In this document: positions 27,065-60,242 of the stretch, one piece after another | Numbering within the stretch: the first letter of the stretch is position 1 | Layout: each line of letters begins with the position of its first letter | Assembly (NCBI GenBank): GCA_030593295.1 | Contig: JAUVHO010000003.1 | Span: forward strand, 22,164-86,163 | Source of the DNA: Methanomassiliicoccales archaeon | Lineage (GTDB): Archaea > Thermoplasmatota > Thermoplasmata > RBG-16-68-12 > SOIM01 | Direction: 5' to 3' | DNA: 64,000 bases | Notes under the pieces: generated by a model | What the model was told of the DNA's origin: nothing | What the model saw: only the letters and a program-made list of their open reading frames with translations | The model's database searches: none | Program-made: the position numbers and the translations under genes

Positions 27065-27066
27065 AC

Positions 27067-27753: not shown

Positions 27754-27791
27754 GCTCCAGCCAATTCAAGTCGGGCTAAATAATGTTTCGC

Positions 27792-28601: not shown

Positions 28602-28670
28602 ATTAATATTTCTCAAGAGAGAATCAAATTGGACTTCAATAGCAGATATGACCCAACAAATCCTTAAACG

Positions 28671-29810: not shown

Positions 29811-29819
29811 GCAAGGTCC

Positions 29820-30962: not shown

Positions 30963-31125
30963 CCGACCTCTCAGATCCGTTCAAGATTGTGATTGCCTTT
31001 GAAGTTATATGTTTATCGACAGCCTGACCCATGCCAATGATTTCACCCTCCGAGGAAGAAGATAGAAAGACTTAAATCGAACCTGATTGTAGCTCATCCG
31101 ACCCTCTGGTTATCGGTGTGGCCAT

Positions 31126-32412: not shown

Positions 32413-32431
32413 CACGCTCAGGGAGCCTATC

Positions 32432-34336: not shown

Positions 34337-34418
34337 TACCTCAAGTGAAGATGGCCACGTTCTGCGAATTCTATATATATCGCCAGGTCGATAGTCATCA
34401 TGGAGGAGGACTGCGTAA

Positions 34419-35381: not shown

Positions 35382-35440
35382 CGTCAATTCATTTGATACG
35401 AATTCGCAGTGAGAGTCGCGCTCGCTTGGTTGCTTGAATC

Positions 35441-36096: not shown

Positions 36097-36104
36097 ATTA
36101 AATA
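36097..36104 (+). promoter_or_regulatory. TATA-box-like element (ATTAAATA) upstream of 36142
   Basis: Lies 37 nt upstream of the GTG start and is followed by ATGGGGGG-N6-GTG. Confidence 0.35.
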
Positions 36105-36141
36105 GACTGGAACAGATATTCAGGAAGATGGGGGGTAAGTC

Positions 36142-44525: not shown

Positions 44526-47500
44526 CTAGTTTTCATCCCCTTGCTCTTCCATCGACTCCTCTTCAACTTCTTCTTCCACTTCCGTCGGAGTCTCGACCGG
44601 TTCTTCCCCCTTCCGTCTTCTGCCAAGCAGAGCTATCACAGCCAATAGAAGGACTATGATGATGACCAGAAAGATCCACCAGTAATCAAGGAAATCAAAT
44701 GGTTTCTCCAGCACTGCCAGTTCTGCCGATTTGATCACTGTGTTCGCTTCTTCATTTCCGGCATTGTCTTCCGCCCTGACTATGAAGTAGTATGTCACAC
44801 CCCTCTCGAGACCTGATATTGTGAATTCCTGCAGGCCCGTCGTGGCGGTCGGAATCACGAAATCAAAAGATGTCTCTGTTTGCGAAACGTAGATGTTGTA
44901 TGTGATAGGATTCGAAGGATCGCTGTTGCATTCAGGGTCATCAGGATCCTCAGCCGCAGTCCATGAGAGGGTTACGTCACCATCGTCATCGTCTGCGAGG
45001 ACAAGATCGAGCCCGCCAAAACTCGGCGGTGAACTGTCAGTTGGAGTAGTCGGCATCGCACTTCGTTCAATTGTGTTGTCTTCTTCATTCCCAGCCGCAT
45101 CTTCAGCTCTCACGACGAAATAATAAGTGACTCCATCTTGAAGGCCAGTTATTTGTATGTTCGTGTCCTGAGTGTTGGCATCTGGATTCAGGAAGTTCTG
45201 TCCCCCTGAGGTTGTGGAGTAGTAGATATAGTACGTAATCGGCACCGATGGGTCGGAATTGCTTTCGATCGTGTCCGGGTCTGTCGCGGCCGCCCAGAAC
45301 AGGTCAACGGCCCCTCCAGTTCCTGCGTCTGAAGCAACAACCAGTCCAGCGAAGACCGGGGGAGTATCGTCCACTGGTGTGGTGGGCATCGCGCTCAACT
45401 CCACTACATTGCTCTCTTGATTGCCCGCAGAATCTCGCGCTCTGACAACGAAGTAATGCATGACTCCGTTCTGAAGGCCGCTCATCTCGATTTGAGTGAG
45501 CTGGGTCGTGGCATCTGGCGAGAGGAAGTCCTGGCCACCGGGTATTGTTGAGATGAACACGAGATATGTAATCGGCAATGACGGGTCTGAATTGCAGTGA
45601 ATCGTGTTTGGATCGGTCGCTGGAGACCACATCAGCGTGACCTTACCATCCGTCTGTGAATCGAAGGCCGAGGTGACGCCTGCGAAAGAAGGCGGCGTGT
45701 CATCTGTGGGAGTTGTGGGAATCGCTGATCTTTCTACAATGTTGAATTCTTGATTGAGTACAGCATCCCTTGCTCTCACGACAAAATAGTATGGTATACC
45801 ATTGGTGAGACCGGTCATATCGATTGTGAGCAGCTGGGTTGTCGCGTTGGGAGACATGAAATCCTGACCGCCCGATGCAGTAGAGTAGAAGATATCGTAG
45901 TTGATTGGCAGTGTAGGATCGGTGTTGCATTCCAGAGTATCTGGGTCTGTGGCCGCCAACCAATCTAGGGTGACCGTTCCTCCGGTACCGGCGTCGATTG
46001 CGAACTGAACCCCAGCGAAGCTCGGAGGCGTCGTATCCACCGGTGTCGTTGGCATCGCACTCACTTCAACTAGGTTGTTCTCCTCGTTTCCAACGGCATC
46101 TTCGGCTCTCACGACGAAGTAGTAGAAGGCCCCATTATCCAGAAAACTCACATTGTACTGCGTGCTCGCCGCGGTCGCATTCGGATTCACGAAGTCCTGT
46201 CCGCCAGGAATCTTCGAGTAGTAGATGTTGTAGGTTATCGGCAAAGAGGGGTCCGAATTACATTCTGGTGTGTCTGGGTCGGCCGCGGCTGTCCAGTTCA
46301 ATCTCACGCTTCCACCCGTGCCCAGGTCAATGGCCGTTGCGAGGCCTGCGAAAGCGGGAGGAGTACTGTCGATAGGTGTTGTGGGAATTGCGCTTAGTTC
46401 AACCAAATTCTTTTCCTCGTTTCCCACTCCGTCTTCCGCGCGGACGACAAAATAATAGTTGGTGCCATCTGTCAGTCCGGTCACTTCATAATTGGTGTTC
46501 TGTGTGGTGACGTTTGGCGACAGAAAATCCTGTCCTCCGGGTATCTCGGAGTAGTAGATGTTGTATGTGATTGGCAATGACGGATCAGAGTTGCTTTCTG
46601 GAGAATCTGGATCAGTGGCAGTATTCCAGCTCAAAGCCACACTGCCTCCTGTACCAGAGTCGGTTGCCGACTGTATCCCTCCGAAACTTGGAGGAAAATA
46701 GTCAAGAGGAGTGGTTGGTATGGCACTTCTCTCTGCCGTATTGCTGTCCTCAAATCCCCAAGTATCTTCCGCTTTTACTACGAAGTAGTGTCTGGTACCA
46801 TTCAGAAGTCCTGAAACCCGGAAGGTGGTCAGTGAAGTGCTGTAATCGGGCACAAAGAAGTTCTGTCCTCCTGAGATGGTGGCTATGTAGATATTATAGC
46901 TGATTGGAGGACTCGGATCCCACGCTGGATTCCAACTGAGAGTTATGTCACCATCTGTGCCATCATCAACCGCTGAAACCAAACCCCCAAAGACTGGAGG
47001 CATAAAATCGTCCCATGTAACCGCATAGTCGTGGAGAACCGGAGTTGAAGCTAGGTTGTTCTGAAAATCCCACAAATCCGCCCTCACTCGTATTGAAGGG
47101 TGAGTCAAAGCATCAATGGAAGCCATCGAGAATTGTGGAGCCAGTATCTGAGGGTATCCCATCACTAGGTTACCAGTTGCTCCGTCCAGAAACGAATAGG
47201 CAACGAAAACGTCTGGACCCACATCAGTCTTGTTGGAGAAAAACTCCAGCCAACCATAGCCGGCGATCGGTCCAATGACTTCGGAAATCACATATCCGTT
47301 TCTTGCGTAGGTCGCCAAGCAGATCCTACCATCGGATGAACTGTCCACGCACCCATACCACGAAGTCGTGACCCAGTTTGAGTCTATCAAGACAGTTCCG
47401 GCGAAGAGATGCGCATCTTCAGGTGTATTCGGAAGCAGATCCAAAGACACACCCTGCTTTGTCCAACTCACTCCTCCGGGAGATGTTGCGTTGCCGATTC

Positions 47501-48368
47501 TCCAGTTGAGGCCATTAGAACCTGAATACCACATATGGTATATCCCCAGAGGATCTTTCGTCACCGTCGGTTCTATCGCTTGGCTACTGTCAAAACTACC
47601 CGGGATGCCGATATCTATTGCCAGACCCTGAGATGTCCAGGCTATACCATCGTTCGATGTGGCATATAGGATTCGATAATTGCCACCGTCATATCCTGCG
47701 TACCACATTTTGTATACGCCCCCCTCTTTTATGACCTCAGGGAAGACAACCCCTCTGTCATCGAGAGGACCTTGAAATCCAATGTTCATCACCATTCCCT
47801 GCCTCGTCCAAACATACCCAGAGGGGGATGTGGCATAGAATATTCTGGCTCCACCTGAACCGAAATCGTCACCAACATACCACATCTTGTACATTCCTCC
47901 GTCTTCGATCACTGTTCCCGCGTAGACTCTATCTTCTTGGCTGGCGTTTGCGCCGATGACTATTCCTTGTCTGTCCCAGTTCCTGCCATCAGCCGAAGTT
48001 GCATATCGTATGAAGCGAGGTTGTGGTGACCCCCCTGAAGTACCTGTGTACCACATCCGCCACGTACCATCAGAGCCCTCCAAGACCTCAGGATAGGCAC
48101 TCGCCAGAAAACTGCTTCCTGGAGGCCCCACATCAAGAAGAATGCCATGCCTGAACCAATCCCAATTACCAGCATCTAGGGTGACATCCCCACCTGCAAC
48201 CACAACGTTGTTCTGTTGGGAGATCTTGGTTGTATCGTCGAAGAGATCTTCCCAGACCCCGGGTTGAGCAAGGGCGCCAAAAGACAGAAACCCAGACGAC
48301 GATAGAACGATCACCAGTGTCAAGCCCACAGCCAGATGGTTAGCTTTGATTGGAGTAGCAACCCTCAT
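44526..48368 (-). CDS. Surface protein D (T-type): signal peptide, split beta-sandwich with a nested five-bladed beta-propeller, 7 FN3 repeats, TM anchor, acidic cytoplasmic tail
   Basis: I prefer the ATG at 48368 (MRVATPIKANHLAVGLTLVIV) because GGAGGAGG lies 7 nt upstream; the track GTG at 48422 adds 18 aa. Architecture is collinear with 40866..44384. Confidence 0.9.
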   Translation of the reverse strand: MRVATPIKANHLAVGLTLVIVLSSSGFLSFGALAQPGVWEDLFDDTTKISQQNNVVVAGGDVTLDAGNWDWFRHGILLDVGPPGSSFLASAYPEVLEGSDGTWRMWYTGTSGGSPQPRFIRYATSADGRNWDRQGIVIGANASQEDRVYAGTVIEDGGMYKMWYVGDDFGSGGARIFYATSPSGYVWTRQGMVMNIGFQGPLDDRGVVFPEVIKEGGVYKMWYAGYDGGNYRILYATSNDGIAWTSQGLAIDIGIPGSFDSSQAIEPTVTKDPLGIYHMWYSGSNGLNWRIGNATSPGGVSWTKQGVSLDLLPNTPEDAHLFAGTVLIDSNWVTTSWYGCVDSSSDGRICLATYARNGYVISEVIGPIAGYGWLEFFSNKTDVGPDVFVAYSFLDGATGNLVMGYPQILAPQFSMASIDALTHPSIRVRADLWDFQNNLASTPVLHDYAVTWDDFMPPVFGGLVSAVDDGTDGDITLSWNPAWDPSPPISYNIYIATISGGQNFFVPDYSTSLTTFRVSGLLNGTRHYFVVKAEDTWGFEDSNTAERSAIPTTPLDYFPPSFGGIQSATDSGTGGSVALSWNTATDPDSPESNSDPSLPITYNIYYSEIPGGQDFLSPNVTTQNTNYEVTGLTDGTNYYFVVRAEDGVGNEEKNLVELSAIPTTPIDSTPPAFAGLATAIDLGTGGSVRLNWTAAADPDTPECNSDPSLPITYNIYYSKIPGGQDFVNPNATAASTQYNVSFLDNGAFYYFVVRAEDAVGNEENNLVEVSAMPTTPVDTTPPSFAGVQFAIDAGTGGTVTLDWLAATDPDTLECNTDPTLPINYDIFYSTASGGQDFMSPNATTQLLTIDMTGLTNGIPYYFVVRARDAVLNQEFNIVERSAIPTTPTDDTPPSFAGVTSAFDSQTDGKVTLMWSPATDPNTIHCNSDPSLPITYLVFISTIPGGQDFLSPDATTQLTQIEMSGLQNGVMHYFVVRARDSAGNQESNVVELSAMPTTPVDDTPPVFAGLVVASDAGTGGAVDLFWAAATDPDTIESNSDPSVPITYYIYYSTTSGGQNFLNPDANTQDTNIQITGLQDGVTYYFVVRAEDAAGNEEDNTIERSAMPTTPTDSSPPSFGGLDLVLADDDDGDVTLSWTAAEDPDDPECNSDPSNPITYNIYVSQTETSFDFVIPTATTGLQEFTISGLERGVTYYFIVRAEDNAGNEEANTVIKSAELAVLEKPFDFLDYWWIFLVIIIVLLLAVIALLGRRRKGEEPVETPTEVEEEVEEESMEEQGDEN
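44727..47000 (-). repeat. Coding tandem array of 7 FN3 repeat units (about 330 nt each)
   Basis: Same unit structure as 41076..43017. Units are positionally orthologous between the two genes (for example unit 4 of both contains 'NYDIFYST'). Confidence 0.85.
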
Positions 48369-48457
48369 ATTTAATCCTCCTCCGCAACATGGATTCAGTA
48401 CGCACCTGATAATATTTCCCACTGATATGCTGTGATTCCAGCCGTACTGGGGAATCG

Positions 48458-48466
48458 TTAAGTATA
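48458..48466 (+). promoter_or_regulatory. TATA-box-like element (TTAAGTATA) upstream of 48513
   Basis: Lies 46 nt upstream of the TTG start and is followed by ATGGGGGA-N6-TTG. Confidence 0.35.
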
Positions 48467-48512
48467 TCGGCCATCTTATGTTGAAATCAGAGAAGGGAAT
48501 GGGGGATGACTG

Positions 48513-50609
48513 TTGAGGGGTACAATCCTTCTGACTGTGCTGTTAGTACTATCGTTTTCTATTCCCGTTCACATCACTGCAGATACCAACGAAGATGATT
48601 CGACTACCAACTGGGGGGAGGGGATTCGCTGGATTAAGATGGGATTGATTGTAGATGTTGGCAACCCTGGGGATCCTGATGACAAGTGTGCATCCGCCGG
48701 CCATGTGATCTTCGACCAAGGTCTTTACAAGATCTGGTACTCCGCATACAATCAACCAACGGCAACCTGGAGCATAATGCATGCCACTTCACCAGATGGA
48801 ATGACATTCACAAAACAGGGGGTCGTACTGCAAGTCGGGGCACCGGGCGAAATGGATGACGACTTCGTTAGAGACTCGATGGTTCTGCGCAATGACGACA
48901 CCGGATTGTATGAGATGTTCTACACAGGTCAGAAGAAAGGGTTGTACGGTTGGAGGATATTCCGAGCGCTATCTACAGACGGAATCAGCTGGCAGAAGTT
49001 GGGCGTTGTGTTCTCAGGAGTAGGAGCTGTCGGTCATCCGCATGTCATCCGAGATTCAAGTGGTTTCTACCGAATGTGGTTCAGTCAATATGACACTGTC
49101 AACTGGAGGATCAGGTATGCCACGTCAAACGACGGTCAGATCTGGATCGACGAAGGTCTCGTTCTCGATATCGGATCCCCAGGCGACCCTGATTCTCTTC
49201 ATGTTTACATGCCCAGCGTCCTGATCGAACCTGATGGAACTCATGTCATGTTCTACAGCACCTCAAACGGGAATCCCTTCAACATTGTGGACATCTACTA
49301 TGCTACATCTCCCACTGGCATGGCAGGTTCATGGATGAGAATCGGATTGGCCATCGAACATGGAGGTCCTGGTGATTACGATGAGGTCCAGGCTATCCGA
49401 CCCATAATAACGAGGAGGCCCAATGGACTGTACGAGTTGTGGTATTCATCCTATGATGGGGTGTATCGAAGACTGATGCTAGCTTTGGGGGCAGTAGATG
49501 TCGCCATCAAGCTTGTGACGAGTGTCGAAAATGATTCGGATGTTCTTCTCAATTGGACTTCTCCGGATTCTCCCTTTATCGATTACTATCTCGTCTATAG
49601 AGCTCCGGACCAAAGATCCTTTGACTTCTCGATGTGGCTTCATAATACCTCCGACGACCCAGACCCTCTCAAGAGAAGTTGGCATGATATGGGAGCCGCC
49701 CTTGAGAACTCGCCCACAGAGTTGTACTATATCGTCAGGGTCGTGTACTCATATGGGGTAATCGGTGTAACCAGCAACACTGCAGGCAAGTGGACAATGA
49801 GTTTCGATGAGGGTATGACTTCATTCTCATTGCCTTTGGAGCCTTTCGAAGTTCATAATGTCAGTTGGTATGCAGAGCAAATCACCCATCTGGACTACAT
49901 TTCCTGGATGAGTTCAGATGACAATTGGATTGTGCATCGGAAGACCATGGACGAAGGTGTGAACGATTCACTCATGCTATTCGGGCAAGGCTATGAATTG
50001 TCTTTCACTTCTTCATCGTCATTCACTTTCTGCGGACTGCCAGGATCGATGGTTAGATTCAAGGAAGGCTTGGGTGACGATATGGATTGGGCGACAAGCC
50101 TCAGGGCAACCGATGACGGCACTTGGGTTGATGTTCACTGGAATCAGACCCCAGGCGCCTCAGAGTACGTTATCCTTCAATCTCACAAGAGTATTGGGGT
50201 GAACGAGCTTAATTCGATTCCCGTTGCCATAGTGCCCAATAGCCAGACATCGTGGGGTTTCGCGGATCCTTTTTACGGACGAATAAGCCGGTATTTCATG
50301 GTTATTGCTGTGAATTCCTCGGGAGCCTGGGGAAGCAGCACGTATAGCGTTGGCATTGAGAGGATCGACATCAGTCCCGGGATCATTTCCCTGGGGCCAC
50401 ATCTAGATTCGCAAAACAAGAAAGACATTCATCGCTTCTGCAGAGAGTATCCATCGGTTGTTGGTGTCGCCTATACCTCGTCCGGTTTATGGAAGTTCCA
50501 TTCATCAGTGATGCCTCCCTCTGCCTACAATACTTGGATTGAGCAAGGTCGTGGTTATCAGGTCTCTGTTGAGTTCTCTAGCGTGACCATCATAGAAATC
50601 GGCTACTAG
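48513..50609 (+). CDS. Surface protein E (X-type): signal peptide, five-bladed beta-propeller, FN3-X-FN3-X stalk
   Basis: The stalk is collinear with 38678..40813 (same C-terminal 'GYQVSV...EIGY'). The propeller sequence is closest to that of 57300..60242. Confidence 0.88.
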   Translation: MRGTILLTVLLVLSFSIPVHITADTNEDDSTTNWGEGIRWIKMGLIVDVGNPGDPDDKCASAGHVIFDQGLYKIWYSAYNQPTATWSIMHATSPDGMTFTKQGVVLQVGAPGEMDDDFVRDSMVLRNDDTGLYEMFYTGQKKGLYGWRIFRALSTDGISWQKLGVVFSGVGAVGHPHVIRDSSGFYRMWFSQYDTVNWRIRYATSNDGQIWIDEGLVLDIGSPGDPDSLHVYMPSVLIEPDGTHVMFYSTSNGNPFNIVDIYYATSPTGMAGSWMRIGLAIEHGGPGDYDEVQAIRPIITRRPNGLYELWYSSYDGVYRRLMLALGAVDVAIKLVTSVENDSDVLLNWTSPDSPFIDYYLVYRAPDQRSFDFSMWLHNTSDDPDPLKRSWHDMGAALENSPTELYYIVRVVYSYGVIGVTSNTAGKWTMSFDEGMTSFSLPLEPFEVHNVSWYAEQITHLDYISWMSSDDNWIVHRKTMDEGVNDSLMLFGQGYELSFTSSSSFTFCGLPGSMVRFKEGLGDDMDWATSLRATDDGTWVDVHWNQTPGASEYVILQSHKSIGVNELNSIPVAIVPNSQTSWGFADPFYGRISRYFMVIAVNSSGAWGSSTYSVGIERIDISPGIISLGPHLDSQNKKDIHRFCREYPSVVGVAYTSSGLWKFHSSVMPPSAYNTWIEQGRGYQVSVEFSSVTIIEIGY

Positions 50610-50687
50610 CTCATTAGACAGACTCAGCGTCAATTCAAGCACAATCTTTATGGCTTGGTTAGGTTTCTTTAGCGAATTGCCAACCGG

Positions 50688-52565
50688 GTGTCTGGAGATT
50701 CCACGTGGGGTATTTGTGGGGTATACGGCTTCGAGGATCGGGCTCCAATCAAGAGAATGTGCTGGTCTCTTCAACATCGTGAGCCAGAAGGTGTCGGATA
50801 TCACGTAGACAAAGACTTGATGCTTGGCCACGATAGACTTGCGATCATCGACCTGCGAACGGGAGATTAACCCATCTACAATGAGGATCGATCATTGTGC
50901 GTCATAGACAATGGAGGAATCTACAATTTCGTGGAGCTACGTCAGGAGCTCGAGAAGAAAGGCCATAAGTTTTACACCAAGCCGGATACGGAAGTTGTTG
51001 TTCACTGCCACGAAGAATATGGCCTGAAGGCCTTTTCGAGATTCAATGGCATGTTTGCAGTCGCCCTATGGGATGATAACAAGAAGGAGCTCATTCTAGC
51101 TAGGGACAGAGATGGTGTGAAACCGTTGTACTATGCTATGCTCAAGGACGATAAGTTCCTGTTCGCCTCCGATCAAGGCCATTCTGCAACACCCAGAGGT
51201 CCCTAGAGAGTTGAACTTGGAAGCTTTTCACTTCTTCGTGAATCTTCGATACCTTCCAAGGGAACTCACAATGTTCAAGGGAATACACAGGCTCCTCCCA
51301 GCTCAGTACGCAGTTATCAGCAAAAAGGGCTTCAAGACTGGCTTCTTTTCACAATACAAGTTCAGACTCTAGAGAAAGAGCGAGGACTTCTTCGTAAAAT
51401 CTCTGCGAAACTACCTGAAACAGGCAGTGAGGCTCCAGATGGTTAGCGATGTGCCAATCGGGATATGTCTGTCTGTAGGGTTGGACAGTAGTGCAATCGT
51501 GGCTTTCGCATCCATGCAAACGGACGAAACCGTAAAGACCTATCGCATGGGATTTGGTGAGGACACAGATGAGATAGAAGAGGCCAACTTCGTGGCGGAT
51601 CACTTCAAGACCGATTATCGAAACCTCATAGTCAAGACCGATCTCTTGAAGGAATATTCCAAAATGATTTAGTGTGCAGATGCACCCAAGAGGATTCTTT
51701 ACCCCTACTACCTTTCTGAGCTTGTAGGTCAGAAAGTAAAGGTCGCCCTGGGAGGTCTGGGTGGGGACGAGCTCTTCGGAGGCTACATCGGGAAATACCA
51801 GTACGCTGAAGACGCAATGAGAAAGAGAAGAACGATCCCCTCAAATGTGAGAAGGAAATTGGCTAGTAGTGCTCAAAACCTGATTGCTTTCCAGTCTTCC
51901 CAAGGTCACTTGTCAGATGACAAGAATCTGGAATACCTAAAGAAAATAAAGCACATTGATAGCAACGTGGACCTTTACCTCAACATTCAGAGCATGGATG
52001 AGGTTCTTCCCAAAAGGTATCTCGAGAGTCTATACGGGACCAAGATGTCGAGAGCAAAGTTTAGGAAATCAGGGAACCGTTCAAACCCTTCTTTAAGTCC
52101 AACAGTCAACTGATGAAGCAATCCATGGAGACCGATTCTCAGGTTAAGATGGTCGACGGTTTCCTCTTTGTTGAGGATGCCATGTTGATGGTCCACTCGT
52201 TGGAGCCCCGGATTCCCTTCTTAGAAAAGAACTTAGTGGACTTCGCTTTTACGATTCCTCCTTCCCTCAAGTGGAAGGATGGAATGGGGAAATACATATT
52301 CAGAAGAGCTATACGGCCCTATCTGCCAAAGGAAGTGTTTCACAAAAAGGAAGCAAGGCTTCGGAAGCAATGTGTTCAGAATGTGCCTGGACGAGATACA
52401 TGAGGTCGCCAGTCAAAGGCTATTGGAAGGGAACATCATCGCTGAAGGACTCATGAGCAAGAAGTTGTCGAAAGGGTTGTTAATCACGAACCTACGCCTG
52501 CCCTAACAAAACACTATTGTCTAGCACTGAGTCTGCTCACATTTGAGATTTAGCATGACATCAAC
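50688..52565 (+). pseudogene. Degraded asparagine synthase-family (asnB-like) amidotransferase gene
   Basis: Homology to 32432..34336 runs through four or more frames. 'ICGVYGF' sits where MCG is expected. In-frame TAA at 50868, TAG at 51370, 51670 and 52551. Frame changes near 51168, 52055, 52345 and 52500. The PP-loop reads 'SVGLDSS' instead of SGGLDSS. Confidence 0.88.
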
Positions 52566-52674
52566 ATGAAGAATGAGAACCTCAGGAAGCCTCGGTTGGA
52601 TGCTTCGAGATACTTCTGAATTCCGGTATCTTCTGAGACTGCAAAAGACTTAAGGTGTTTCTGATATTGACTGG

Positions 52675-53811
52675 TTGACTCTTGACAGGATAGTGATTCA
52701 TGTGGAAAGGCAGATTAAACTGATTGAACCCGTCGTGGGAGATGAGGAATTGTCTCTTATCCGGGAGGTTCTGGAATCTGGATATATGACAGAAGGCCCA
52801 AAGGCCCGAGAGTTTGAGAAGAGTTTTGCGGAATTGGTTGGGGCCAAGCATGCGATAGTAACAACTTCCTGCTCAACTGCGCTTCAGTTGTCAGTCGACA
52901 TACTTGGAGTTGGACCCGGGGACGAAGTAATTGTCCCTGATTTCACCTATCCCGTGACAGCTGATGTGGCTAGACTGAGAGGGGCCAGGGCGGTATTGGT
53001 TGACGTGGACGAAAGCACGTACAACATCGACCCAGATGAGGTCAGGAAAGGTATCACAGATAAGACAGTGGGTATAGTGCCTGTCTCCTTGTTCGGTCAC
53101 CCGCTTGACATGGCTCCTTTGAGGGAGATTGCTCAAGAACACGATTTATTCATCTTGGAAGATGCCGCTTGCAGCACTGGCGCGAGGTTCAATGATGAGA
53201 AGACCGGTTCGATGGCGGACTTGACTTGTTTCAGCTTCCATCCCAGGAAAGTGATCACTACTGGGGAGGGTGGAATGCTGACTACAGACGATGATGAATT
53301 GGCAGAGAAAGCAAGGGAGATGAAGAGATTCGGTATGAGAATGGTGGACGGAAGATCTCTATTCATGACTGTCGGAACCAACTACAAGCTGAGTGATGTT
53401 CTGGCCGCAATTGGCGTGAAGCAGCTTGAGAAAATCGACAGGATCATTGAGAGGAGGCGGGAGTTGGCGGCTGTCTACGATTCCCTCCTTACCGATGTTG
53501 TCCTTCTCAAGAAACCAGCAGTGGATAATCGGGTTTACCATACATATCAGACCTATGCTGCTTTTGTGATCAAGGATGGCGTTCGAGACAGGCTCATCAA
53601 GGACATGGGAGAGAAGGGAATCGAAACGCAAATCGGAACCTACTCACTGCACATTCAGCCGAGTTTCAGTGATGAAACAAGGATTGGAGACCTTGTCCAC
53701 TCGACGAAGCTCTTTGAGAATCTGTTGGCCTTGCCCATGTCCCAATCAATGACCGAAGACGACCAGGAGATGGTTGTCCGAGAAGCAATTGGACTTCTCG
53801 AATCATATTGA
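52675..53811 (+). CDS. DegT/DnrJ/EryC1/StrS-family PLP-dependent sugar aminotransferase
   Basis: 'IKLIEPVVGDEELSLIREVLESGYMTEGPKAREFEKSFAELVGAKHA', 'FSFHPRKVITTGEGGML', 'NYKLSDVLAAIG'. Start uncertain (TTG 52675 or GTG 52702). Confidence 0.85.
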   Translation: MTLDRIVIHVERQIKLIEPVVGDEELSLIREVLESGYMTEGPKAREFEKSFAELVGAKHAIVTTSCSTALQLSVDILGVGPGDEVIVPDFTYPVTADVARLRGARAVLVDVDESTYNIDPDEVRKGITDKTVGIVPVSLFGHPLDMAPLREIAQEHDLFILEDAACSTGARFNDEKTGSMADLTCFSFHPRKVITTGEGGMLTTDDDELAEKAREMKRFGMRMVDGRSLFMTVGTNYKLSDVLAAIGVKQLEKIDRIIERRRELAAVYDSLLTDVVLLKKPAVDNRVYHTYQTYAAFVIKDGVRDRLIKDMGEKGIETQIGTYSLHIQPSFSDETRIGDLVHSTKLFENLLALPMSQSMTEDDQEMVVREAIGLLESY

Positions 53812-53823
53812 GGATGTGATGTA

Positions 53824-54729
53824 ACGAAAAAGCTTATCGTATTTGGGGCCGGAGGGTTTGTTGGAAGGAATCTAGTTCACAGTCTACACGATGATGGGAT
53901 TCATCTGATTGCCTGTGATGTGATGGATTCTCCGTTTCCTGAGGATGTTCTATACGATAAGGTCGACATCACAAGAAAAGAAGAAGTTGCCAAAGTCATG
54001 GAAGGTGCTCAGTCAGTGATTCACTTGGCCGCATCTCCGCTCACAATGTCCTTGGAAGATCCCATATTGGATATGCGTGTGAATGTGGGTGGCACTTTGA
54101 ACATAATGGAGCGCTCAAGAAAAGAGAAGGTCAGTCTGATTATCTACTCCTCAGCCTCATCCGTGGTTGGGACCCTCCAGCATAACCCAGTGGATGAGAA
54201 TCATCCTTGTGTTCCCAGGACAACCTACGCAGCTTCCAAACTATCTTGCGAACACTACCTCCGCGTTTATCAGGAGATATACGGGCTCAACTATCTGGTG
54301 TTCAGGTTCTTCAACATCTACGGACCATGGCAGTATCCAACAAGTGGAGGTCTAATTCCTTCTATCATTAATCGAGTCCTCAACAAAGAAGATATTAAAG
54401 TATTCGGAGACGGCTCCGCCAGAAGGGATTTCGTTTACGTTGAGGATTTGGTGCATCTGTACAAGTCTGCTATTGAGGGAAAAGTCACTAACGAGGTACT
54501 AAACTTGGGTACAGGTACTGGAACTTCAATAATGGAAGTTGTTGAGACTGTTGGTGACGTACTGGATATTGAACCGAACATACAATATGAGCCAAAGAGG
54601 GATGGCGAAATCAACGATTTCTATGCAGACACTGCAAAGCTCGAGAGGACGTTTGGATTCAAGCCGAATACATCCTTGAGAGAAGGCGTTGAGAAGACGT
54701 GTCAATGGTTCCTGGAGGAGAACATATGA
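53824..54729 (+). CDS. NAD-dependent sugar epimerase/dehydratase (SDR family) lacking a canonical start codon
   Basis: The Rossmann motif 'TKKLIVFGAGGFVGRNL' is encoded at 53824-53874 in frame with ORF 53920..54729 ('YAASKLSCEHY' = YxxxK). There is no ATG/GTG/TTG between the TGA at 53809 and the GTG at 53920. An ACG at 53824 sits 9 nt after GAGGA. Confidence 0.8.
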   Translation, partial: TKKLIVFGAGGFVGRNLVHSLHDDGIHLIACDVMDSPFPEDVLYDKVDITRKEEVAKVMEGAQSVIHLAASPLTMSLEDPILDMRVNVGGTLNIMERSRKEKVSLIIYSSASSVVGTLQHNPVDENHPCVPRTTYAASKLSCEHYLRVYQEIYGLNYLVFRFFNIYGPWQYPTSGGLIPSIINRVLNKEDIKVFGDGSARRDFVYVEDLVHLYKSAIEGKVTNEVLNLGTGTGTSIMEVVETVGDVLDIEPNIQYEPKRDGEINDFYADTAKLERTFGFKPNTSLREGVEKTCQWFLEENI

Positions 54730-54760
54730 AAGCATCCCGAATTCAGTGCCAGATCACTAA

Positions 54761-56503
54761 TTGCGGACCCAGGACGGCCGTACAATGATTGGAGTATTGA
54801 AATCATCAATCAATAGAGATAACTACGCCACAAAGAGGCTGCATGATTTCGGCTTGAGATGGTTTAGATACATCGAGTCTGCCAGAGACGACCTTTCAGA
54901 ATTCCATCTTCTCTTGGTCCCAAAAAGCGAACTTAGCAAAGAGGAGACTGAGAATATCCTAGATTTCTTGGAGAATACGGGGTCCGTCATATCTCTATAC
55001 CCAAACGAAGAGCTAGTCCATAATGTCGGGTCACTCAACGAGTTCTTGGAGGTTCCTCAAGACCAACTCTCCGGTCATGTAATGCTAGATTCGATTGATG
55101 TCCCTGTCTTCGGCCGGATCTGCAACATTGGTGATACAGAGTTTTCCCTTGAGATGGCTGGATCTGAGTTTCCGGCTTTGGCTAGGAGACGATTCAACAA
55201 AGGCTCTCTTTTTGTGTTCTCATATTCTCTTTCGGATTCTGTTCTGGAAACCACACAACGTCTATTGACTGTCAATCCCAAACTCGGAGATGGAGTAAAA
55301 TGGGGGGATTATCCTGGAAACCTCCTCGATGTAACCAAAGAACCGCTCGATGTCCCATATTCAGACATTCAAATGATATTCCTGAGGAGCTTGATTCTCA
55401 CAGAACTTCACCGGCAGGGGATAGCATTGCCCATCGTCTGGCATGTTCCGTATGCCAAGAGGACCTGCGTGATGATAACGATGGATGAGGATTGGACTAA
55501 CCCATGCTGTCTTGACCATTCTCTTAATCTCCTGGCCGAGAGAAACTTGCCATCAACATTGTTCGTCACTGAGAAGATCGAAGGGTCAAAAGCGTTCTTA
55601 TTTCAGCACGAATGTGACCTTGCTGTGCATCCGTTCCACAAGAATGCGACTTTCAGCAAAGACACTCTAAGAAGGAGCACAGGTTTCCTGTCTGAGAGTC
55701 CAAAAGGAGTCAGAAACCACCGGAGACTAGTGGCTCGACCCGAAATGTTTTCAGCTGAAATCGACCTGGGCTTTCAATGGGAATCGAATCTCGGTGTCTC
55801 GAAGACCTCAGGATTTGCCAATGGTACGGGCCTCCCATTCTTTTTGTGGGATAATGGTGACGAGTACGACTTGCTGGAGTTCCCTATTCATTTCGAAGAT
55901 GATTTGTATCTGTTTGAAGAAGCCAATTTTGATTTCAGGGAATCGGTCATTAGAAAGATGTTGGAAGAATCAAGGGAGAGGTTCTTCTCATGTCTGAATC
56001 TGGCATTCCATCCTATTCACATATTCTTGAACTCGACAAGCATAGCTGACTATGAGGATTGCAAGCAACATGGTGTGTCAAAGAACGGCCAGAAGCTTCA
56101 GGAGTATCGAGCTTCTCTTCCAACCAGAAAGGGAGTAGAGAACCTGTTCACGGCGTTATTGGACTATCTTATCGCCGAGTCGCACGACATTCTAGTCACT
56201 ACGTGCCAGAAGATCAACGATTATGTTCGAGAATGCCAGTCCGTTGAGATATCTTTTGATAACAGGAAGACTACCATATCAGGATGTTTCGAAGGACTCA
56301 CCATTCTCTTTCCCTTTACAGATGAATCCAGATTGGATGAGGTGGAGAATCTCTTTGCCAAGGCCCAATCAATCGATGTCGGCGGGATCCGGAGCATCCT
56401 AGCACAGGTTTCCTCAGAAGGTGTAAGGAAGGGAAGCATTGAAATCGAAGGAGAATCTTTCAGCTCCAACGCTCCTGGAACTGAAGAAGGAGGAGGGTGT
56501 TGA
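54761..56503 (+). CDS. Hypothetical protein with a central polysaccharide-deacetylase-like region
   Basis: 'CVMITMDEDW', 'LPSTLFVTEK', 'LAVHPFHKN', 'GVRNHRRL' resemble 31126..32412. N- and C-terminal parts are unassigned. The start may be the ATG at 54785. Confidence 0.45.
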   Translation: MRTQDGRTMIGVLKSSINRDNYATKRLHDFGLRWFRYIESARDDLSEFHLLLVPKSELSKEETENILDFLENTGSVISLYPNEELVHNVGSLNEFLEVPQDQLSGHVMLDSIDVPVFGRICNIGDTEFSLEMAGSEFPALARRRFNKGSLFVFSYSLSDSVLETTQRLLTVNPKLGDGVKWGDYPGNLLDVTKEPLDVPYSDIQMIFLRSLILTELHRQGIALPIVWHVPYAKRTCVMITMDEDWTNPCCLDHSLNLLAERNLPSTLFVTEKIEGSKAFLFQHECDLAVHPFHKNATFSKDTLRRSTGFLSESPKGVRNHRRLVARPEMFSAEIDLGFQWESNLGVSKTSGFANGTGLPFFLWDNGDEYDLLEFPIHFEDDLYLFEEANFDFRESVIRKMLEESRERFFSCLNLAFHPIHIFLNSTSIADYEDCKQHGVSKNGQKLQEYRASLPTRKGVENLFTALLDYLIAESHDILVTTCQKINDYVRECQSVEISFDNRKTTISGCFEGLTILFPFTDESRLDEVENLFAKAQSIDVGGIRSILAQVSSEGVRKGSIEIEGESFSSNAPGTEEGGGC

Positions 56504-57201
56504 GAATGACAAAGGTCAGATTGCTGGGTGAAAACATCTTAATCGGAAAGAACGTGAGGTTTGGAGAGAACGTCATTGTATACGACAACGTTGAAATCGG
56601 AGATCGTGTTGTCGTTGAACACAACAGCATCATAGGATACGACCACTTGACTAATCTGCGCGATGAGGTGAGGAATCTAGAGACGCCCTATCTCACCAGA
56701 GTAGGAGATGATGTACTCATTCGACCCAGTTCGATCATCTATGCTGGTTGTAGCATCGGGGATTACAGCCGGATATGCAGCCATGTCATAATGAGGGAAT
56801 TCACTGAACTGGGTGAGAATAGCTATCTGGGGAATGGCACGAAGGTGGAAGGCTATACTAAGATAGGGAACAACACCGCCATCGAAACCCAGGTTCATGT
56901 TACTGCAAAAGCCTTGATCGAGGACAAGGTGTTCATCGCTACTATGACCGTTCTGGCAAATGGACTGACTATGAATTGGAGTCGACCTCATATTCCGACA
57001 GTTGAAGAAGGTCCTAGGATTCGGAGAGGCGCTAGAATTGCCATCGGAGTAAAAATCCTGCCCGGAGTTGAGATAGGGAGGGAGGCTCTAATCGGAGCGG
57101 GCGCGGTCGTGACCAAGGACGTGCCTCCATTCAAAATCGCATTGGGAGTCCCAGCGAGAGTTGTCGGTGAAGTTCCCGAAGAGGAAAGGCTTAGGGAGTA
57201 G
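56497..57201 (+). CDS. Left-handed beta-helix (hexapeptide repeat) acetyltransferase
   Basis: 'IGKNVRFGENVIVYDNVEIGDRVVVEHNSIIG', 'IGVKILPGVEIGREALIGAGAVVTKDVPPFKIALGVPARVV'. Confidence 0.8.
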   Translation: MLRMTKVRLLGENILIGKNVRFGENVIVYDNVEIGDRVVVEHNSIIGYDHLTNLRDEVRNLETPYLTRVGDDVLIRPSSIIYAGCSIGDYSRICSHVIMREFTELGENSYLGNGTKVEGYTKIGNNTAIETQVHVTAKALIEDKVFIATMTVLANGLTMNWSRPHIPTVEEGPRIRRGARIAIGVKILPGVEIGREALIGAGAVVTKDVPPFKIALGVPARVVGEVPEEERLRE

Positions 57202-57247
57202 GGGACGGCCACTCCCTACGGGGTTATTGAGTTTTCCTCCAATAGTC

Positions 57248-57255
57248 ATTTATAC
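57248..57255 (+). promoter_or_regulatory. TATA-box-like element (ATTTATAC) upstream of 57300
   Basis: Lies 44 nt upstream of the ATG and is followed by ATGGGGGA-N6-ATG. Confidence 0.35.
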
Positions 57256-57299
57256 CGGCTTACGCATTTGTATGATAGGAGAAGGATGGGGGAAAGTCC

Positions 57300-60242
57300 A
57301 TGCGAGGGGTAACTACTTGGTCCGTCCTGATTGTTCTTAATCTAGTCACGCCTATTGTTGTCGCTTCCGAGGCCCTGGATCAGACTTCTTTCAACTCCAT
57401 TCCCACGTTTACCTGGAAGAAGATGGGAGTCGTAATAGACATTGGTGCCCCGGGTGAGCCCGACCATGTTGCCGCGTCTTCGGCTTATGTCATGTATGAC
57501 AACAACACATACAAGATTTGGTACTCAGCATACGATGGCAACAATTGGAAGGGAATACTCTACGCCACATCCATCGATGGGCATACATTCACGAAACATG
57601 GAATAATCTTGGATGTTGGGGCACCAGGAGATATGGATGATGATTTTGTTAGGGATCCATCGGTCCTGAAGAACAATCAAGGTCTCTACGAGATGTGGTA
57701 CACTGGACAGAAGAAGGGTATTTGGGGATGGAGGATTTTCCACGCCACTTCGACTGATGGCGTGAACTGGCAGAAGCATGGCCTGGTATTCTCAAGAGCT
57801 GAACTCGCAGTGGCTCATCCAGATGTTATACTGGCTGGTGACGGTACATATAGAATGTGGTTCAGTGAGTATGACAAGACCCATTGGAGGATTCGGACTT
57901 CAACTTCCCCTGATGGTCAAACGTGGACTGACCAAGGCCTTTGTCTCGATGTGGGACCTCAAGGTGGTCCTGATTGGCTGTATGTTTACATGCCAAGTGT
58001 GATTGTGGAGCCGGATGGCACATATGTCATGTTCTACAGTGATTCTGATGGCAATCAGTATAACCACGTGGATATTTCCTATGCCACATCTTCCAGTGGC
58101 ATGGCAGGAACATGGACAAAGCATGGAGTAACACTGGATCGTGGGCAGCCTGGTGAGTATGACGACGTTCAAGCCATCAGCCCATCCATAGCGATGGGAC
58201 CAGATGGAATTCACAGGCTATACTACTCCAGTTATGATGGACAGAATAGAAGAATGATGCTCGCGATAGAGGCTGGCCCTCAACCTCCAGTGGCAAATAT
58301 CGGGTCGGATAGGACAATAGAAGAGGGAGAATCCGTGGTTCTGGATGTGTCTGATTCTTATGACCCCGATGGATATATCGCTCGATATGAGTATGATTTC
58401 GGAGATGGGACCTACTTCGTCTATGTACCACCATCGCCGGGGCAGAAGCCACCCTTGATTGGGAACCAGTACGGGGACGATGGCAAAGGCAACGACGGTT
58501 TCTACACGATTACTCTCACGGTCACTGATGATGAGGGAATTTCTGCCACTGATAGTATGATAGTGACCGTCTTGAATGTCAATCCCACAACCTCATCCAC
58601 TGCACCTTCAACAGTTTATGAGGGGGGCGCGGTAACAGCGTCACTTGAGGTTACCGATCAAGGTAGCGATGACTTGTTCATTGAGATTGACTGGGGGGAC
58701 GGAAGTTCGCCAAGCGACATTGTTAGCCTGAATGACCCGTCTGTCGGTCCCGATCCATACCCAAGCCCGGAGGTCAATCCTCGACATCTCACGAAGTCGG
58801 CTCATCATGTCTACGGAGACAATGGAATCTTCACGCTAACAATATCAGCGTCAGATGATGACGGAGGAGTATCCATTTCCTCTCAAGATATCAAGGTGAT
58901 GAACCTCCCGCCATCTCTATCTGTCCCAGAGCCCCGTGCAGTTTCTGAGGGTCAGGGAGCTACACTTCAGATAGATGTGCTGGATCTTGGAAGCGATGAC
59001 ATCTCAATATCGATTGACTGGGGGGACGGGTTGTCCGAGGAAGAGATATACTACAATGATGGAGTTGGGCCAGATCCCCCGGAGAGTCCCCAAGGCGCAC
59101 ACCCTGTCAGCATTTCGAAGACATTTACCCATACCTACGGGGACAATGGAATCTACAGGGTAACAGTCGTCGCATCAGATGACGATGGCGGTGAATCAAC
59201 CAAGACTGTAGATATGGAAGTCCTGAACGACGCTCCGACTGTGAATCCGTTCGGTCCTTTCACGATCGATGAAGGATCCTCTCTTTTCATTGGAACTAAG
59301 GCCAGAGATGCGGGAAGTGATGATTTGACTTTCTGGTGGATATGGGAGCTTGGCCCTAGCATCGAAAACACCTACTTCAATGACGGGATTGGCCCTGATC
59401 CATATCCGAGTCCACATGGCACTTATCCGTTCTCTACAATGGATGTATCATCCAACACTTATGGAGACAACGGGAATTACTCTATTGTGTTATCAGTCCG
59501 GGACGATGATGGAGCAGTCACAAATCTCGCAACTTATGTTCTCGTCTCGAATGTTGCACCTTCGATTGTATCGGTCAGCTATACCGTCTTCACTAACGCC
59601 CCAAGGACGATAGGTTATTGGGGCCATCAGTGCGAAGTCTTGGCACCGTATGGCGACCATACGGGAATACTGCCGGAATGGGTTGCGGAAATCTCCTCCA
59701 AATCCCAGGTTTTCTCGGGCATTACGAGTGAAGTCGAGGTGTGTGAGGTGTTGCAGACAGGTGATGCATCAGAGATGGTGGAAATGGGGAGGAGACAACT
59801 CATGGGTGTCTGGCTCAACGTCGTGAGCGGCAAGCTGAGCCAAGAAGCGGAGTTGAACATGCCCAACCTCACATCGACATCCACGGTATGGGATGCAATT
59901 CTAGAGGTTGAGAACTTGATACTCACTCTTGCAGAGAGAGACGAGTTGGAGAGAGGGAAGAACATTACGGACAACATGAACAATGGGATAGGTATCGCAC
60001 TGGCAACCGTCGAATTCATCAGCACGGCAACAGATCCCGGGTCAGACGATTTGATATTCACCTGGGATTTTGGCGATGGTACTGTGCAGAAGAATTCATA
60101 TCTAAACGATGGGACATTTCCTGTCGAGGTTACTGACTTCATTGGACATTCATACTTCTCTGCAGGATCGTTCATCGTCACTCTGACCGTTGAGGATGAT
60201 GACGGCGGAGTATGTACTGTCACGATTCCAATCGAAGTCTAG
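57300..60242 (+). CDS. Surface protein F (P-type): signal peptide, five-bladed beta-propeller, PKD domain, three PKD-like 'GSDD' repeats, Cys-containing helical module, terminal PKD-like domain
   Basis: Same domain order as 36142..38574, with three extra repeats ('GSDD(L/I)...DWGDG...NDG(V/I)GPDP(Y/P).SP...H.YGDNG.Y...DDDGG'). Helical module starts 'NAPRTIGYWGHQC'. Confidence 0.88.
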   Translation: MRGVTTWSVLIVLNLVTPIVVASEALDQTSFNSIPTFTWKKMGVVIDIGAPGEPDHVAASSAYVMYDNNTYKIWYSAYDGNNWKGILYATSIDGHTFTKHGIILDVGAPGDMDDDFVRDPSVLKNNQGLYEMWYTGQKKGIWGWRIFHATSTDGVNWQKHGLVFSRAELAVAHPDVILAGDGTYRMWFSEYDKTHWRIRTSTSPDGQTWTDQGLCLDVGPQGGPDWLYVYMPSVIVEPDGTYVMFYSDSDGNQYNHVDISYATSSSGMAGTWTKHGVTLDRGQPGEYDDVQAISPSIAMGPDGIHRLYYSSYDGQNRRMMLAIEAGPQPPVANIGSDRTIEEGESVVLDVSDSYDPDGYIARYEYDFGDGTYFVYVPPSPGQKPPLIGNQYGDDGKGNDGFYTITLTVTDDEGISATDSMIVTVLNVNPTTSSTAPSTVYEGGAVTASLEVTDQGSDDLFIEIDWGDGSSPSDIVSLNDPSVGPDPYPSPEVNPRHLTKSAHHVYGDNGIFTLTISASDDDGGVSISSQDIKVMNLPPSLSVPEPRAVSEGQGATLQIDVLDLGSDDISISIDWGDGLSEEEIYYNDGVGPDPPESPQGAHPVSISKTFTHTYGDNGIYRVTVVASDDDGGESTKTVDMEVLNDAPTVNPFGPFTIDEGSSLFIGTKARDAGSDDLTFWWIWELGPSIENTYFNDGIGPDPYPSPHGTYPFSTMDVSSNTYGDNGNYSIVLSVRDDDGAVTNLATYVLVSNVAPSIVSVSYTVFTNAPRTIGYWGHQCEVLAPYGDHTGILPEWVAEISSKSQVFSGITSEVEVCEVLQTGDASEMVEMGRRQLMGVWLNVVSGKLSQEAELNMPNLTSTSTVWDAILEVENLILTLAERDELERGKNITDNMNNGIGIALATVEFISTATDPGSDDLIFTWDFGDGTVQKNSYLNDGTFPVEVTDFIGHSYFSAGSFIVTLTVEDDDGGVCTVTIPIEV
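58605..59580 (+). repeat. Three tandem coding PKD-like repeat units (about 325 nt each)
   Basis: Units begin near 'TAPSTVYEGG', 'SVPEPRAVSEG' and 'NPFGPFTIDEG'. Each contains GSDD, (D/I)WG(D/E) and YGDNG motifs. Confidence 0.75.

Follow-up and report, generated by a model that had tools for sequence, protein, structure and literature searches.

A family of paralogous surface-protein genes raises the question of whether the two halves of each protein share one evolutionary history or have been assembled from separate lineages. The window analysed here is a stretch of 64,000 nucleotides from a Methanomassiliicoccales archaeon (contig JAUVHO010000003.1), and it carries six such genes, A to F (Table 1). 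Each protein would comprise a signal peptide, a propeller head and a C-terminal tail, of which there are several interchangeable kinds. The head spans about 287 amino acids in five blades. The tail is a PKD array in A and F, an FN3 array with a membrane anchor in C and D, and a module of about 375 amino acids, here called X, in B and E, while a further paralog on another contig, G, has a short 'K' tail. We believe, with a probability of roughly 85%, that A to F are secreted surface proteins encoded in a hypervariable island, and that heads and tails of different ancestry have been recurrently recombined at the domain junction. The comparison sequences come mostly from metagenome bins, such that some assignments of two genes to the same genome are assignments by contig linkage only.

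Table 1. Genes, protein segments and 5' elements, in positions of the window
Feature	Position	Strand	Remarks
E TATA-like box TTAAGTATAT	48458..48467	+	46-55 nt before start; also in congener G002 as TTAAATATAT
E ATGGGGG motif	48499..48505	+	G-rich Shine-Dalgarno-like element, 7 nt before TTG start
Gene E	48513-50609	+	head and X tail
E signal peptide and linker (aa 1-37)	48513..48623	+	TTG start then AGG GGT (M-R-G)
E head, five-bladed beta-propeller (aa 38-325)	48624..49487	+	A/E/F/G head clade
E head/tail junction (aa 321-340)	49473..49532	+	F-like to B-like switch; maximum-chi-square breakpoint at codon 330 against congener ortholog
E tail, X module (aa 326-698)	49488..50609	+	compact, beta-rich, FN3-like parts, terminus ...EIGY
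F TATA-like box ATTTATAC	57248..57255	+	
F ATGGGGG motif	57286..57292	+	7 nt before ATG start
Gene F	57300-60242	+	head and PKD tail
F head, propeller (aa 37-324)	57408..58271	+	60.7% identity to E head
F tail	58272..60242	+	PKD array with Cys-containing helical insert (GYWGHQC...)
A ATGGGGG motif	36128..36134	+	7 nt before GTG start
A TATA-like box ATTAAATAG	36097-36105	+	
Gene A	36142..38574	+	propeller head 36238-37098 and PKD-type tail
Gene B	38678..40813	+	divergent propeller head 38807-39679 and X module 39680-40813; without ATGGGGG
Gene C	40866..44384	-	propeller head, FN3 array, TM anchor; GGAGG Shine-Dalgarno
Gene D	44526..48422	-	propeller head, FN3 array, TM anchor; transcribed divergently from E; true start likely the ATG at codon 19, with GGAGGAGG before it

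A preliminary description, made from the letters of this DNA, had proposed that the propeller of E is closest to that of F and that the head of B is more divergent, and it quoted peptide strings that are all present in E, F and B. Pairwise alignment bears out both statements. The E and F heads share 60.7% identity, and the A head is 52.3% identical to that of F and 50.2% identical to that of E. The B head reaches only 43.7% with E, 42.1% with F and 41.4% with A, and those of C and D show 33-40% identity with all the other heads. In a head tree of 41 sequences, E, F, A and G form one clade (support 100/99) with B outside it, and this clade contains 12 PKD, 7 X and 5 K tails. Mapping the X label onto the tree requires four changes, each forced by well-supported branches. 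Approximately unbiased (AU) tests reject a single clade of all heads that carry X tails (p=1.2e-5), as well as a grouping of the B clade with the E clade (p=0.0012).

The tails give a different arrangement. The stalk of E was described as collinear with that of B, and its tail indeed matches that of B only, at 51.5% identity over 367 amino acids. The tails of A and F share 44.6% over 296 amino acids and those of C and D 64.6% over 746, and there are no cross-type tail matches among A to F. The assigned types are supported by PKD domains (PF18911; 91.9 bits in A and 136.9 in F, cut-off 27) and by FN3 repeats (PF00041; 101.7 and 125.5 bits in C and D, cut-off 25), and the translations of C and D have a C-terminal hydrophobic anchor, '...DYWWIFLVIIII...', followed by an acidic tail. 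In the tail tree, the E clade is sister to a group made of the B clade and P0004, a protein from a syntenic metagenome contig (100/100), apart from the X modules that stand behind other heads. The tail alignment rejects the head topology in turn (AU p=0.0003), and thus the two trees are incongruent both ways. Grouping the P0004 tail with B in preference to E is not decisive (AU p=0.09), and we therefore claim neither a donor nor a direction of transfer.

The change of affinity within E is abrupt. In 20-residue windows along the protein, identity to F exceeds identity to B up to residue 320 and the reverse holds from residue 341, which places the switch within the region of codons 320-345 where a breakpoint had been anticipated. 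The idea that heads and stalks have different histories through recombination or domain shuffling is therefore upheld by the incongruent trees, by the switch at the predicted junction and by the failure of a rate artefact to explain them. Heads and tails of differing ancestry would have been joined repeatedly by homologous recombination or gene conversion, both between paralogs and between alleles, and the crossovers that survived would be those at the head/tail domain junction. Gene E may thus be a mosaic in which everything from the promoter-proximal region through the G-rich ribosome-binding site and the signal peptide to the end of the head belongs to the A/E/F lineage, and the tail to the B/E lineage of X modules; either half may be the one that moved. 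The biological purpose of such exchange is probably surface variation at the level of the population, driven by viruses or other surface-targeting pressures.

Exchange in this family has occurred more than once and at different times. On the syntenic metagenome contig, L044, P0004 has an X tail and P0011 a PKD tail. Over about 750 nucleotides the DNA of their heads is 85-97% identical, and in the flanks identity is only 40-64%, as for a gene-conversion-type tract between paralogs. The dS between these two heads is 0.61, compared with saturation for E and F. A further case involves E and its ortholog in the congener G002, whose heads are 90.6% and tails 79.4% identical. A block from about position -120 to codon 330, which takes in the promoter, signal and head, is approximately 91% identical, whereas the surrounding region stands at 55-83%, and the maximum-chi-square breakpoint falls at nucleotide 990 (codon 330), a value that was reached in 0 of 500 permutations. 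The corresponding dS stands at 0.31 in the head and at 0.71 in the tail, although the lower head value could come in part from constraint on synonymous sites rather than from a different age. Within the window itself, a recent gene conversion between E and F was considered and is ruled out, because pS between them is 0.75 and dS is saturated, as it also is for E-A and E-B. The resemblance of E to F is thus ancient rather than the product of a recent event, and for the same reason exchange is not shown to be ongoing in this particular genome.

The upstream strings quoted previously are exact (A gATGGGGGGtaagtcGTG, E aATGGGGGatgactgTTG, F gATGGGGGaaagtccATG), and they belong to a shared block of the form ATGGGGG-N7-(A/G/T)TG-AGR-GGN. 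The proposal of a common initiation region exceeds chance expectation, since the full 7-mer begins at exactly -14 in only 3 of the 2283 long open reading frames of the genome, and these three are A, E and F. The G-rich motif is kept in 9 of 12 genes of the A/E/F clade from five genomes or contigs, with X, PKD or K tails behind the head. Genome-wide, GGAGG, GGGGA, GAGGG and GGGGG are enriched 2.4- to 4.6-fold at -22 to -3, with a peak at -15 to -9 for GGGGG and at -14 to -11 for GGAGG. The G-run of the motif in A, E and F occupies -12 to -8, which is the usual Shine-Dalgarno distance in this genome. A search of this 88%-complete metagenome-assembled genome for the SSU rRNA, which would carry the anti-Shine-Dalgarno sequence, found none. 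The block is best read as a G-rich variant of the Shine-Dalgarno sequence plus start context that was inherited with the A/E/F head lineage. TATA-like boxes are also present, at -45 to -37 in A, -55 to -46 in E and -52 to -45 in F, such that the previously given distance of 37-46 nucleotides fits their start-proximal edges only. A movable 5' cassette of UTR, signal and head had been suggested as well. In its favour, the motif tracks the head clade whatever the tail, and the block shared with the congener reaches from about -120 into the gene. However, the tract on contig L044 covers the propeller only and leaves the UTR and signal peptide outside, and thus the 'cassette' is not a fixed unit.

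Two explanations that dispense with recurrent exchange must be weighed. It could be argued that there was no recombination at all, in that a single X-type ancestor gave rise to both B and E by vertical descent, the B head evolved faster or is misplaced by long-branch attraction, and the likeness of E to F is ancestral or convergent. The B clade does sit on a long branch, and the tree-building tool warned of long branches meeting there. However, the rejection of a B plus E head clade speaks against this scheme, and the B head is closer than the E head to eight of eight outgroup heads (38-45% versus 32-40%), which is the opposite of what a fast-evolving B predicts. A rate artefact or long-branch cause for the position of the B head is excluded on these two grounds. 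Moreover, the B orthologs evolve slowly (93% head identity between B and P0008), and the ratio of patristic head to tail distance, mostly 0.13-0.76 between orthologs, is 1.8 for B-E and 2.7 for B-P0004, and B-E stands at 2 to 10 times the value of most ortholog pairs. X tails also occur behind A-like heads (P0005 to P0007) and non-propeller heads. We regard this scheme as already largely refuted and give it hardly any credence. A single ancient fusion for each architecture, followed by purely vertical descent with neither recurrent exchange nor gene conversion, fares somewhat better but is still unlikely. It agrees with the saturated synonymous divergence of E from F, A and B noted above, and with the finding that, across four genomes or contigs, the orthologs of E and F have retained their architecture as well as their synteny. 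It does not anticipate that P0004 and P0011, which share a contig, resemble each other in the head far more closely than E and F do, or that these two heads make up a separate clade with P0012 (100/98). A grouping of P0004 with the E clade is rejected (p=0.012), albeit in a post hoc test. The mosaic of E and its congener ortholog is likewise at odds with purely vertical descent, as are head/tail ratios that range from 0.13 to 2.8 among B, P0008 and P0009.

A separate alternative is that ATGGGGG is more than a ribosome-binding site, either as a tiny upstream open reading frame (uORF) acting through termination-reinitiation or as a dedicated regulatory site of another kind that these genes have in common. 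The exact placement of the 7-mer in A, E and F favours this proposal, as do the retention of 'AT' in the same 9 of 12 clade genes and the weak TTG or GTG start codons in most of them. The putative uORF has five codons in A and E, with a TGA that overlaps the GTG or TTG start, and its stop likewise overlaps the start in G002_E, G003_A, P0004 and P0011. However, the overlapping TGA is an automatic consequence of NTG-AGR, the encoded peptides are not conserved (MGGKS, MGDDC, MGVDA, MGESPCEG), and P0003 (TCGAGGG) and P0013 (ACGGGGG) lack the ATG while keeping the G-run and its spacing. The G-run also lies within -9 to -15, the interval of genome-wide enrichment for GGAGG and GGGGG. Finally, the TATA-like boxes of E and F lie approximately 37-41 nucleotides before the ATG of the motif. 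The usual archaeal spacing from TATA box to transcription start would put the predicted start of E and F transcripts several nucleotides upstream of this ATG, which would therefore not be a leaderless start. Given the loss of the ATG in two clade members, the variable peptide, the automatic TGA and the distance of the TATA box, we have downgraded the leaderless uORF with termination-reinitiation, and we consider any dedicated role of the motif improbable relative to its reading as an inherited ribosome-binding site.

An AlphaFold2 model of E places about 20 strands in residues 39-327 in a five-bladed propeller fold. Foldseek comparison of this head with the PDB returns GH130 chains at TMt 0.70-0.72, together with GH43, GH32, GH117 and GH159 chains. 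The structures on which the model superposes include beta-1,2-mannoside phosphorylases and hydrolases of GH130 (e.g. Teth514_1788, PDB 9gph; 7fip), with an rmsd of 3.5-3.9 Å over about 287 columns. However, sequence identity to GH130 and the wider group of GH43, GH32 and GH117 propellers is only 12-20%, and the five blades of the head are unusually regular repeats in comparison. Profile matches are weak and name GH32N, GH43, GH130 and BT3780-like families, with those in NCBIfam far under their cut-offs. PF00251 (GH32N) has a cut-off of 22.1 bits, which is exceeded by A (25.6), D (24.9) and F (24.1), the GH130 match of B (19.8 bits) is below the cut-off of 26, and a Pfam search of E gave no match at all. 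Sequence matches of the head in the PDB have E-values of at least 4.5e-4 and span one or two blades only. Acidic residues are conserved in every blade (G-x-P-G-x-x-D, S-x-D-G) and are thus indistinguishable from structural repeats. The role of the head may be to bind glycans and not to cleave them. A GH130-like propeller on the cell surface, as a candidate lectin or enzyme, is one of two parts that we mark for experiment, the other being the X tail.

The X tail is an undescribed C-terminal module. It is always located at the extreme C-terminus, it stands behind many unrelated heads, and searches of Pfam and NCBIfam matched it to no family. Structure prediction yields a single compact unit of 374 amino acids (pLDDT 93.8, pTM 0.91). 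Parts of this unit match FN3 domains in tandem arrays such as LAR FN1-4 (PDB 6tpw) and fibronectin (Foldseek E=2.5e-9), but the TM-score over the whole module is only about 0.2, and the likeness in the PDB is confined to FN3 pieces. As a 375-amino-acid unit that is unannotated and common to many unrelated secreted proteins of Thermoplasmata, it is a candidate envelope-anchoring domain. We tentatively entertain a broader reading, which we hold to be rather doubtful, in which X is an undescribed Thermoplasmata domain for attachment or sorting to the envelope, and the island works by cassettes, dealing out a small set of glycan-recognising heads anew, sometimes together with the promoter and initiation region of the head, onto X, PKD, FN3-TM and K anchors. 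If true, this would allow rapid surface variation in a population and would constitute an archaeal analogue of the cassette switching of bacterial surface antigens.

All six genes lie in a hypervariable island of cell-surface and glycosylation genes. Its left flank, 13.9 kb at 21479-35383 of the window, is 93.7% identical to G002, whereas to the right of 35383 identity falls to 55-83% and gene content differs. No counterparts of A, B or C were found in the G002 contigs searched. In addition to the six surface-protein genes, the island carries genes for a DegT aminotransferase, an epimerase, a WbmS-like protein and a hexapeptide transferase, as well as asnB. Many glycosyltransferase-like open reading frames are located upstream.

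A literature search on this protein family in Thermoplasmata returned nothing specific. The principle that recombination diversifies hypervariable surface islands is well known from other archaea and from bacteria, and it is a familiar route to microbial surface variation. What we add is a clean example, with statistical support, of mosaic evolution at the level of domains in the surface proteins of an uncultured archaeal lineage, at three time depths (ancient, intermediate and between congeners) and with breakpoints at a single domain junction. An archaeal island of surface glycoprotein and glycosylation genes that lies between conserved flanks and differs strongly between close lineages has been described, and its diversity was attributed by the authors to homologous recombination (2015, PMC4535781). 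The contrast between flank and island relative to our congener is of the same kind. However, the present island belongs to Thermoplasmata, phylum Thermoplasmatota, and encodes other protein families, and its unit of exchange is resolved to one domain boundary within paralogs, between head and tail. A further parallel is provided by the VARTIG modules of Thermococcales (Makarova et al. 2021, PMC8416519). These secreted archaeal proteins are large, contain Ig-like domains and are encoded in hypervariable loci. In both systems, recombination has given part of the protein a history of its own. The variable part of VARTIG is the C-terminal Ig domain, and its locus, with partner genes downstream, is reminiscent of polymorphic toxin systems, whereas here it is the propeller at the N-terminus and entire tail architectures that are exchanged, and the neighbouring genes encode glycosylation enzymes.

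Heads and tails of the surface-protein genes in the window have different histories. All six paralogs (A to F) have at the N-terminus a signal peptide followed by a ~287-aa repetitive domain, the propeller head, and are divergent beyond it: the tails of A and F consist of PKD domains, those of C and D of FN3 repeats plus a membrane anchor, and those of B and E of ~375 aa, the X module, without a match to Pfam or NCBIfam models. Codon 19, an ATG, is the probable start of gene D. The signal peptide contains a lipobox-like motif with a Cys in A (..LALPGC..) and B (..FLSAC..) but in neither E nor F, so N-terminal lipid anchoring may vary among the paralogs. Two additional propeller paralogs are encoded in the MAG as a whole (2.14 Mb, 91 contigs, 88% complete), namely G, with a short tail called K, and H, with a very divergent propeller and a remotely X-like tail ending ...GWGYWVYVETDTSWIVDNY. 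The gene directly upstream of H has a similar C-terminal sequence, which suggests two tandem genes with tails from one related family.

Coordinates of the genes and other features discussed (window positions unless a contig is named)
Feature	Location	Strand	Length
Gene A	36142-38574	+	810 aa
Signal peptide of A	36142-36210		
Gene B	38678-40813	+	711 aa
Signal peptide of B	38678-38760		
Gene C	40866-44384	-	1172 aa
Gene D	44526-48422	-	1298 aa
Gene E	48513-50609	+	698 aa
Gene F	57300-60242	+	980 aa
Paralog G	C59:20938-22380	-	480 aa
Paralog H	C42:100391-102600	-	
X-tailed protein	C4:1848-4769	+	
X module of X-tailed protein	C41:75745-76842	-	
X-tailed protein	C46:17551-22866	+	
Propeller-less K-tailed ORF	34419-35381	+	
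Propeller-less K-tailed ORF	12190-13335	-	
FN3/TM-anchor gene remnant	35441-36094	-	
Decayed asnB	50688-52619		
Intact asnB	L044:12069-14078		669 aa
Intact asnB	L045:11402-13321		639 aa
Left flank	21479-35383		13.9 kb

The preliminary description had proposed that the head of E is closest to that of F and its tail to that of B, and every peptide and upstream string that it quoted is found in the sequence. Head identity is 60.7% for E-F and 43.7% for E-B (A-F 52.3%, A-E 50.2%, F-B 42.1%, A-B 41.4%), and the E head is thus indeed nearer F. Tail identity is 51.5% over 367 aa for B-E, 44.6% for A-F and 64.6% for C-D, and comparison of the six tails with one another gave no match across tail types. 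In 20-aa windows, identity of E to F exceeds that to B in most of them up to residue 320 and is lower in none, and from residue 341 onwards identity to B is the higher, which places the switch between residues 320 and 341, where the junction had been expected.

For phylogenetic analysis, family members were taken from G002 and G003, which are congeners, from less closely related genomes within the order, from a search of a 5.8-billion-protein collection and, for context, from three metagenome contigs. Relatives in databases are labelled Thermoplasmata or Thermoplasmatota archaeon; P0014, a close F ortholog (tail ~93% identical), bears the NCBI label ‘Candidatus Thorarchaeota archaeon’, and its contig is probably mis-binned, given that all other relatives are labelled Thermoplasmata. 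In a maximum likelihood tree of 41 heads (LG+C20), A, E, F and G fall in one clade (support 100/99) in which tails are mixed (12 PKD, 7 X and 5 K), and B with its orthologs P0008 and P0009 is placed outside. Four changes of the X label are required on this tree, each forced by well-supported branches. AU tests of the heads reject a single clade of all X-type heads (p=1.2e-5) as well as a grouping of the B and E clades (p=0.0012), the latter hypothesis having been named in advance in the preliminary description. A rate artefact behind the position of the B head is excluded, as B is more similar than E to all eight outgroup heads (38-45% versus 32-40%).

In the tree of 38 X modules, the sister group of E, its G002 counterpart and P0003 is formed by P0004 together with the B clade (100/100). 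This assemblage is separate from X modules behind other heads and from those of P0005 to P0007, whose heads are A-like, and the topology of the head tree is rejected by the tail data (p=0.0003). The two trees are therefore incongruent. The patristic head/tail ratio is 0.13-0.76 in most ortholog pairs, meaning that heads evolve more slowly than tails; B-E and B-P0004 have ratios of 1.8 and 2.7. PKD tails are congruent with their own heads, so the propeller-plus-PKD architecture, which is present in more distant genomes too, may be ancestral.

A shared initiation region had also been claimed for A, E and F, and ATGGGGG beginning at -14 is limited to these three among the 2283 long ORFs of the genome. 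GGAGG, GGGGA, GAGGG and GGGGG are enriched 9-15 nt upstream of starts genome-wide, and the G-run thus occupies the Shine-Dalgarno position of this organism, whose 16S rRNA gene was not found in the 88% complete MAG. C, D and G carry GGAGG instead, and the context of B is different. Within the A/E/F head clade, sampled in five genomes or contigs, ATGGGGG-N7-start is kept in 9 of 12 genes irrespective of tail, and P0003 (TCGAGGG) and P0013 (ACGGGGG) have altered motifs at the same spacing. Most start codons in this clade are TTG or GTG, and AGR GGN (M-R-G) comes next. TATA-like boxes, (A/T)TTAAATA(G/T) or TTTATA, lie 45-55 nt upstream of the start, which at the usual archaeal TATA-to-start spacing would imply leaders of ~15-25 nt. 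A five-codon uORF begins at the ATG within the motif, and in most members its TGA overlaps the gene start. A regulatory role for this uORF is unlikely because the ATG is absent from P0003 and P0013, its peptide shows no conservation and NTG-AGR automatically generates the TGA.

Comparison with G002 reveals both an island edge and a mosaic E gene. The left flank is 93.7% identical to contig C31 of G002, and this identity stops abruptly at position 35383, at the end of the plus-strand K-tailed ORF, falling to 55-83% beyond. A hypervariable island has its left edge at position 35383. No counterparts of A, B or C were found in G002, where the sequence beyond the edge instead holds an X-tail gene that lacks a head and is identical to P0051. 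A 5'-truncated remnant of an FN3/TM-anchor gene lies at the edge, 47 nt from the A start, and resembles what an earlier rearrangement between genes of the FN3 type would leave behind. Inside the divergent region, the stretch of E between about -120 and codon 330 is ~91% identical to G002 and the E tail 79% (dS 0.31 in the head, 0.71 in the tail), with a maximum-chi-square breakpoint at nt 990 that was matched in none of 500 permutations. For this pair, then, promoter, UTR, signal peptide and head move as a unit apart from the tail, as the suggested 5' cassette shuffling holds; overall, the original observation is confirmed and its interpretation supported. Between F and its ortholog at the corresponding position in G002, dS is ~2.5 in the head and saturated in the tail, compared with 0.31 for the E head between the same genomes, and the two F alleles belong to different sub-clades, suggesting allelic replacement at this locus.

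Two metagenome contigs, L044 (JGI 3300041075) and L045 (SRR14699983), share the gene order of the window: FN3-type (-), X-type (+), asnB, DegT, epimerase, WbmS-like, hexapeptide transferase and PKD-type (+). In L044, DNA identity between the heads of P0004 (X-type) and P0011 (PKD-type) is 85-97% over CDS positions of about +110 to +860, compared with only 40-64% in their 5' regions and tails. The dS between these heads is 0.61 (saturated for E-F), and they form a separate clade with the P0012 head (100/98). On these sequences, L044 records a later head homogenisation between two syntenic genes, confined to the propeller. Lying between E and DegT, asnB is decayed in the window but intact in the equivalent place on both syntenic contigs, so its pseudogenisation is lineage-specific.

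The E head is a five-bladed propeller in an AlphaFold2 model, nearest among solved structures to GH130 beta-1,2-mannoside phosphorylases (TM 0.70-0.72) and then to GH43, GH32 and GH117 enzymes, and sequence similarity of the heads to these families is marginal. The head may be an enzyme or a lectin. Modelled alone from a 31-sequence alignment, the X module gives a confident compact structure (pLDDT 93.8, pTM 0.91) that matches only FN3 pieces in the PDB (TM ~0.2). Among database proteins it is always C-terminal, within ~15 residues of the end, behind propellers, CARDB/BNR-like repeats, beta-helices, VWA, PKD arrays, YVTN-like repeats or a subtilase-like domain. Three more X-tailed proteins occur in the same genome, two after BNR-like repeats plus CARDB and one a 1772-aa VWA-containing giant. 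Envelope attachment or sorting would be a reasonable reading of the X module's role. The K tail (C-G-P-x-T-L-N-L-K-S...Y-D-P-R-D-I-D...) terminates G, the database proteins P0013, P0017, P0020 and P0021 and two propeller-less ORFs of the window, and is a fourth tail of the interchangeable kind. In P0051, the N-domain of the plus-strand ORF recurs ahead of an X tail.

A literature search found nothing on this protein family. In behaviour, the locus is similar to the hypervariable cell-wall islands of Haloquadratum walsbyi, in which surface glycoprotein and glycosylation genes are diversified by recombination (PMC4535781), and more loosely resembles the VARTIG proteins of Thermococcales, which are recombining Ig-domain proteins (PMC8416519).
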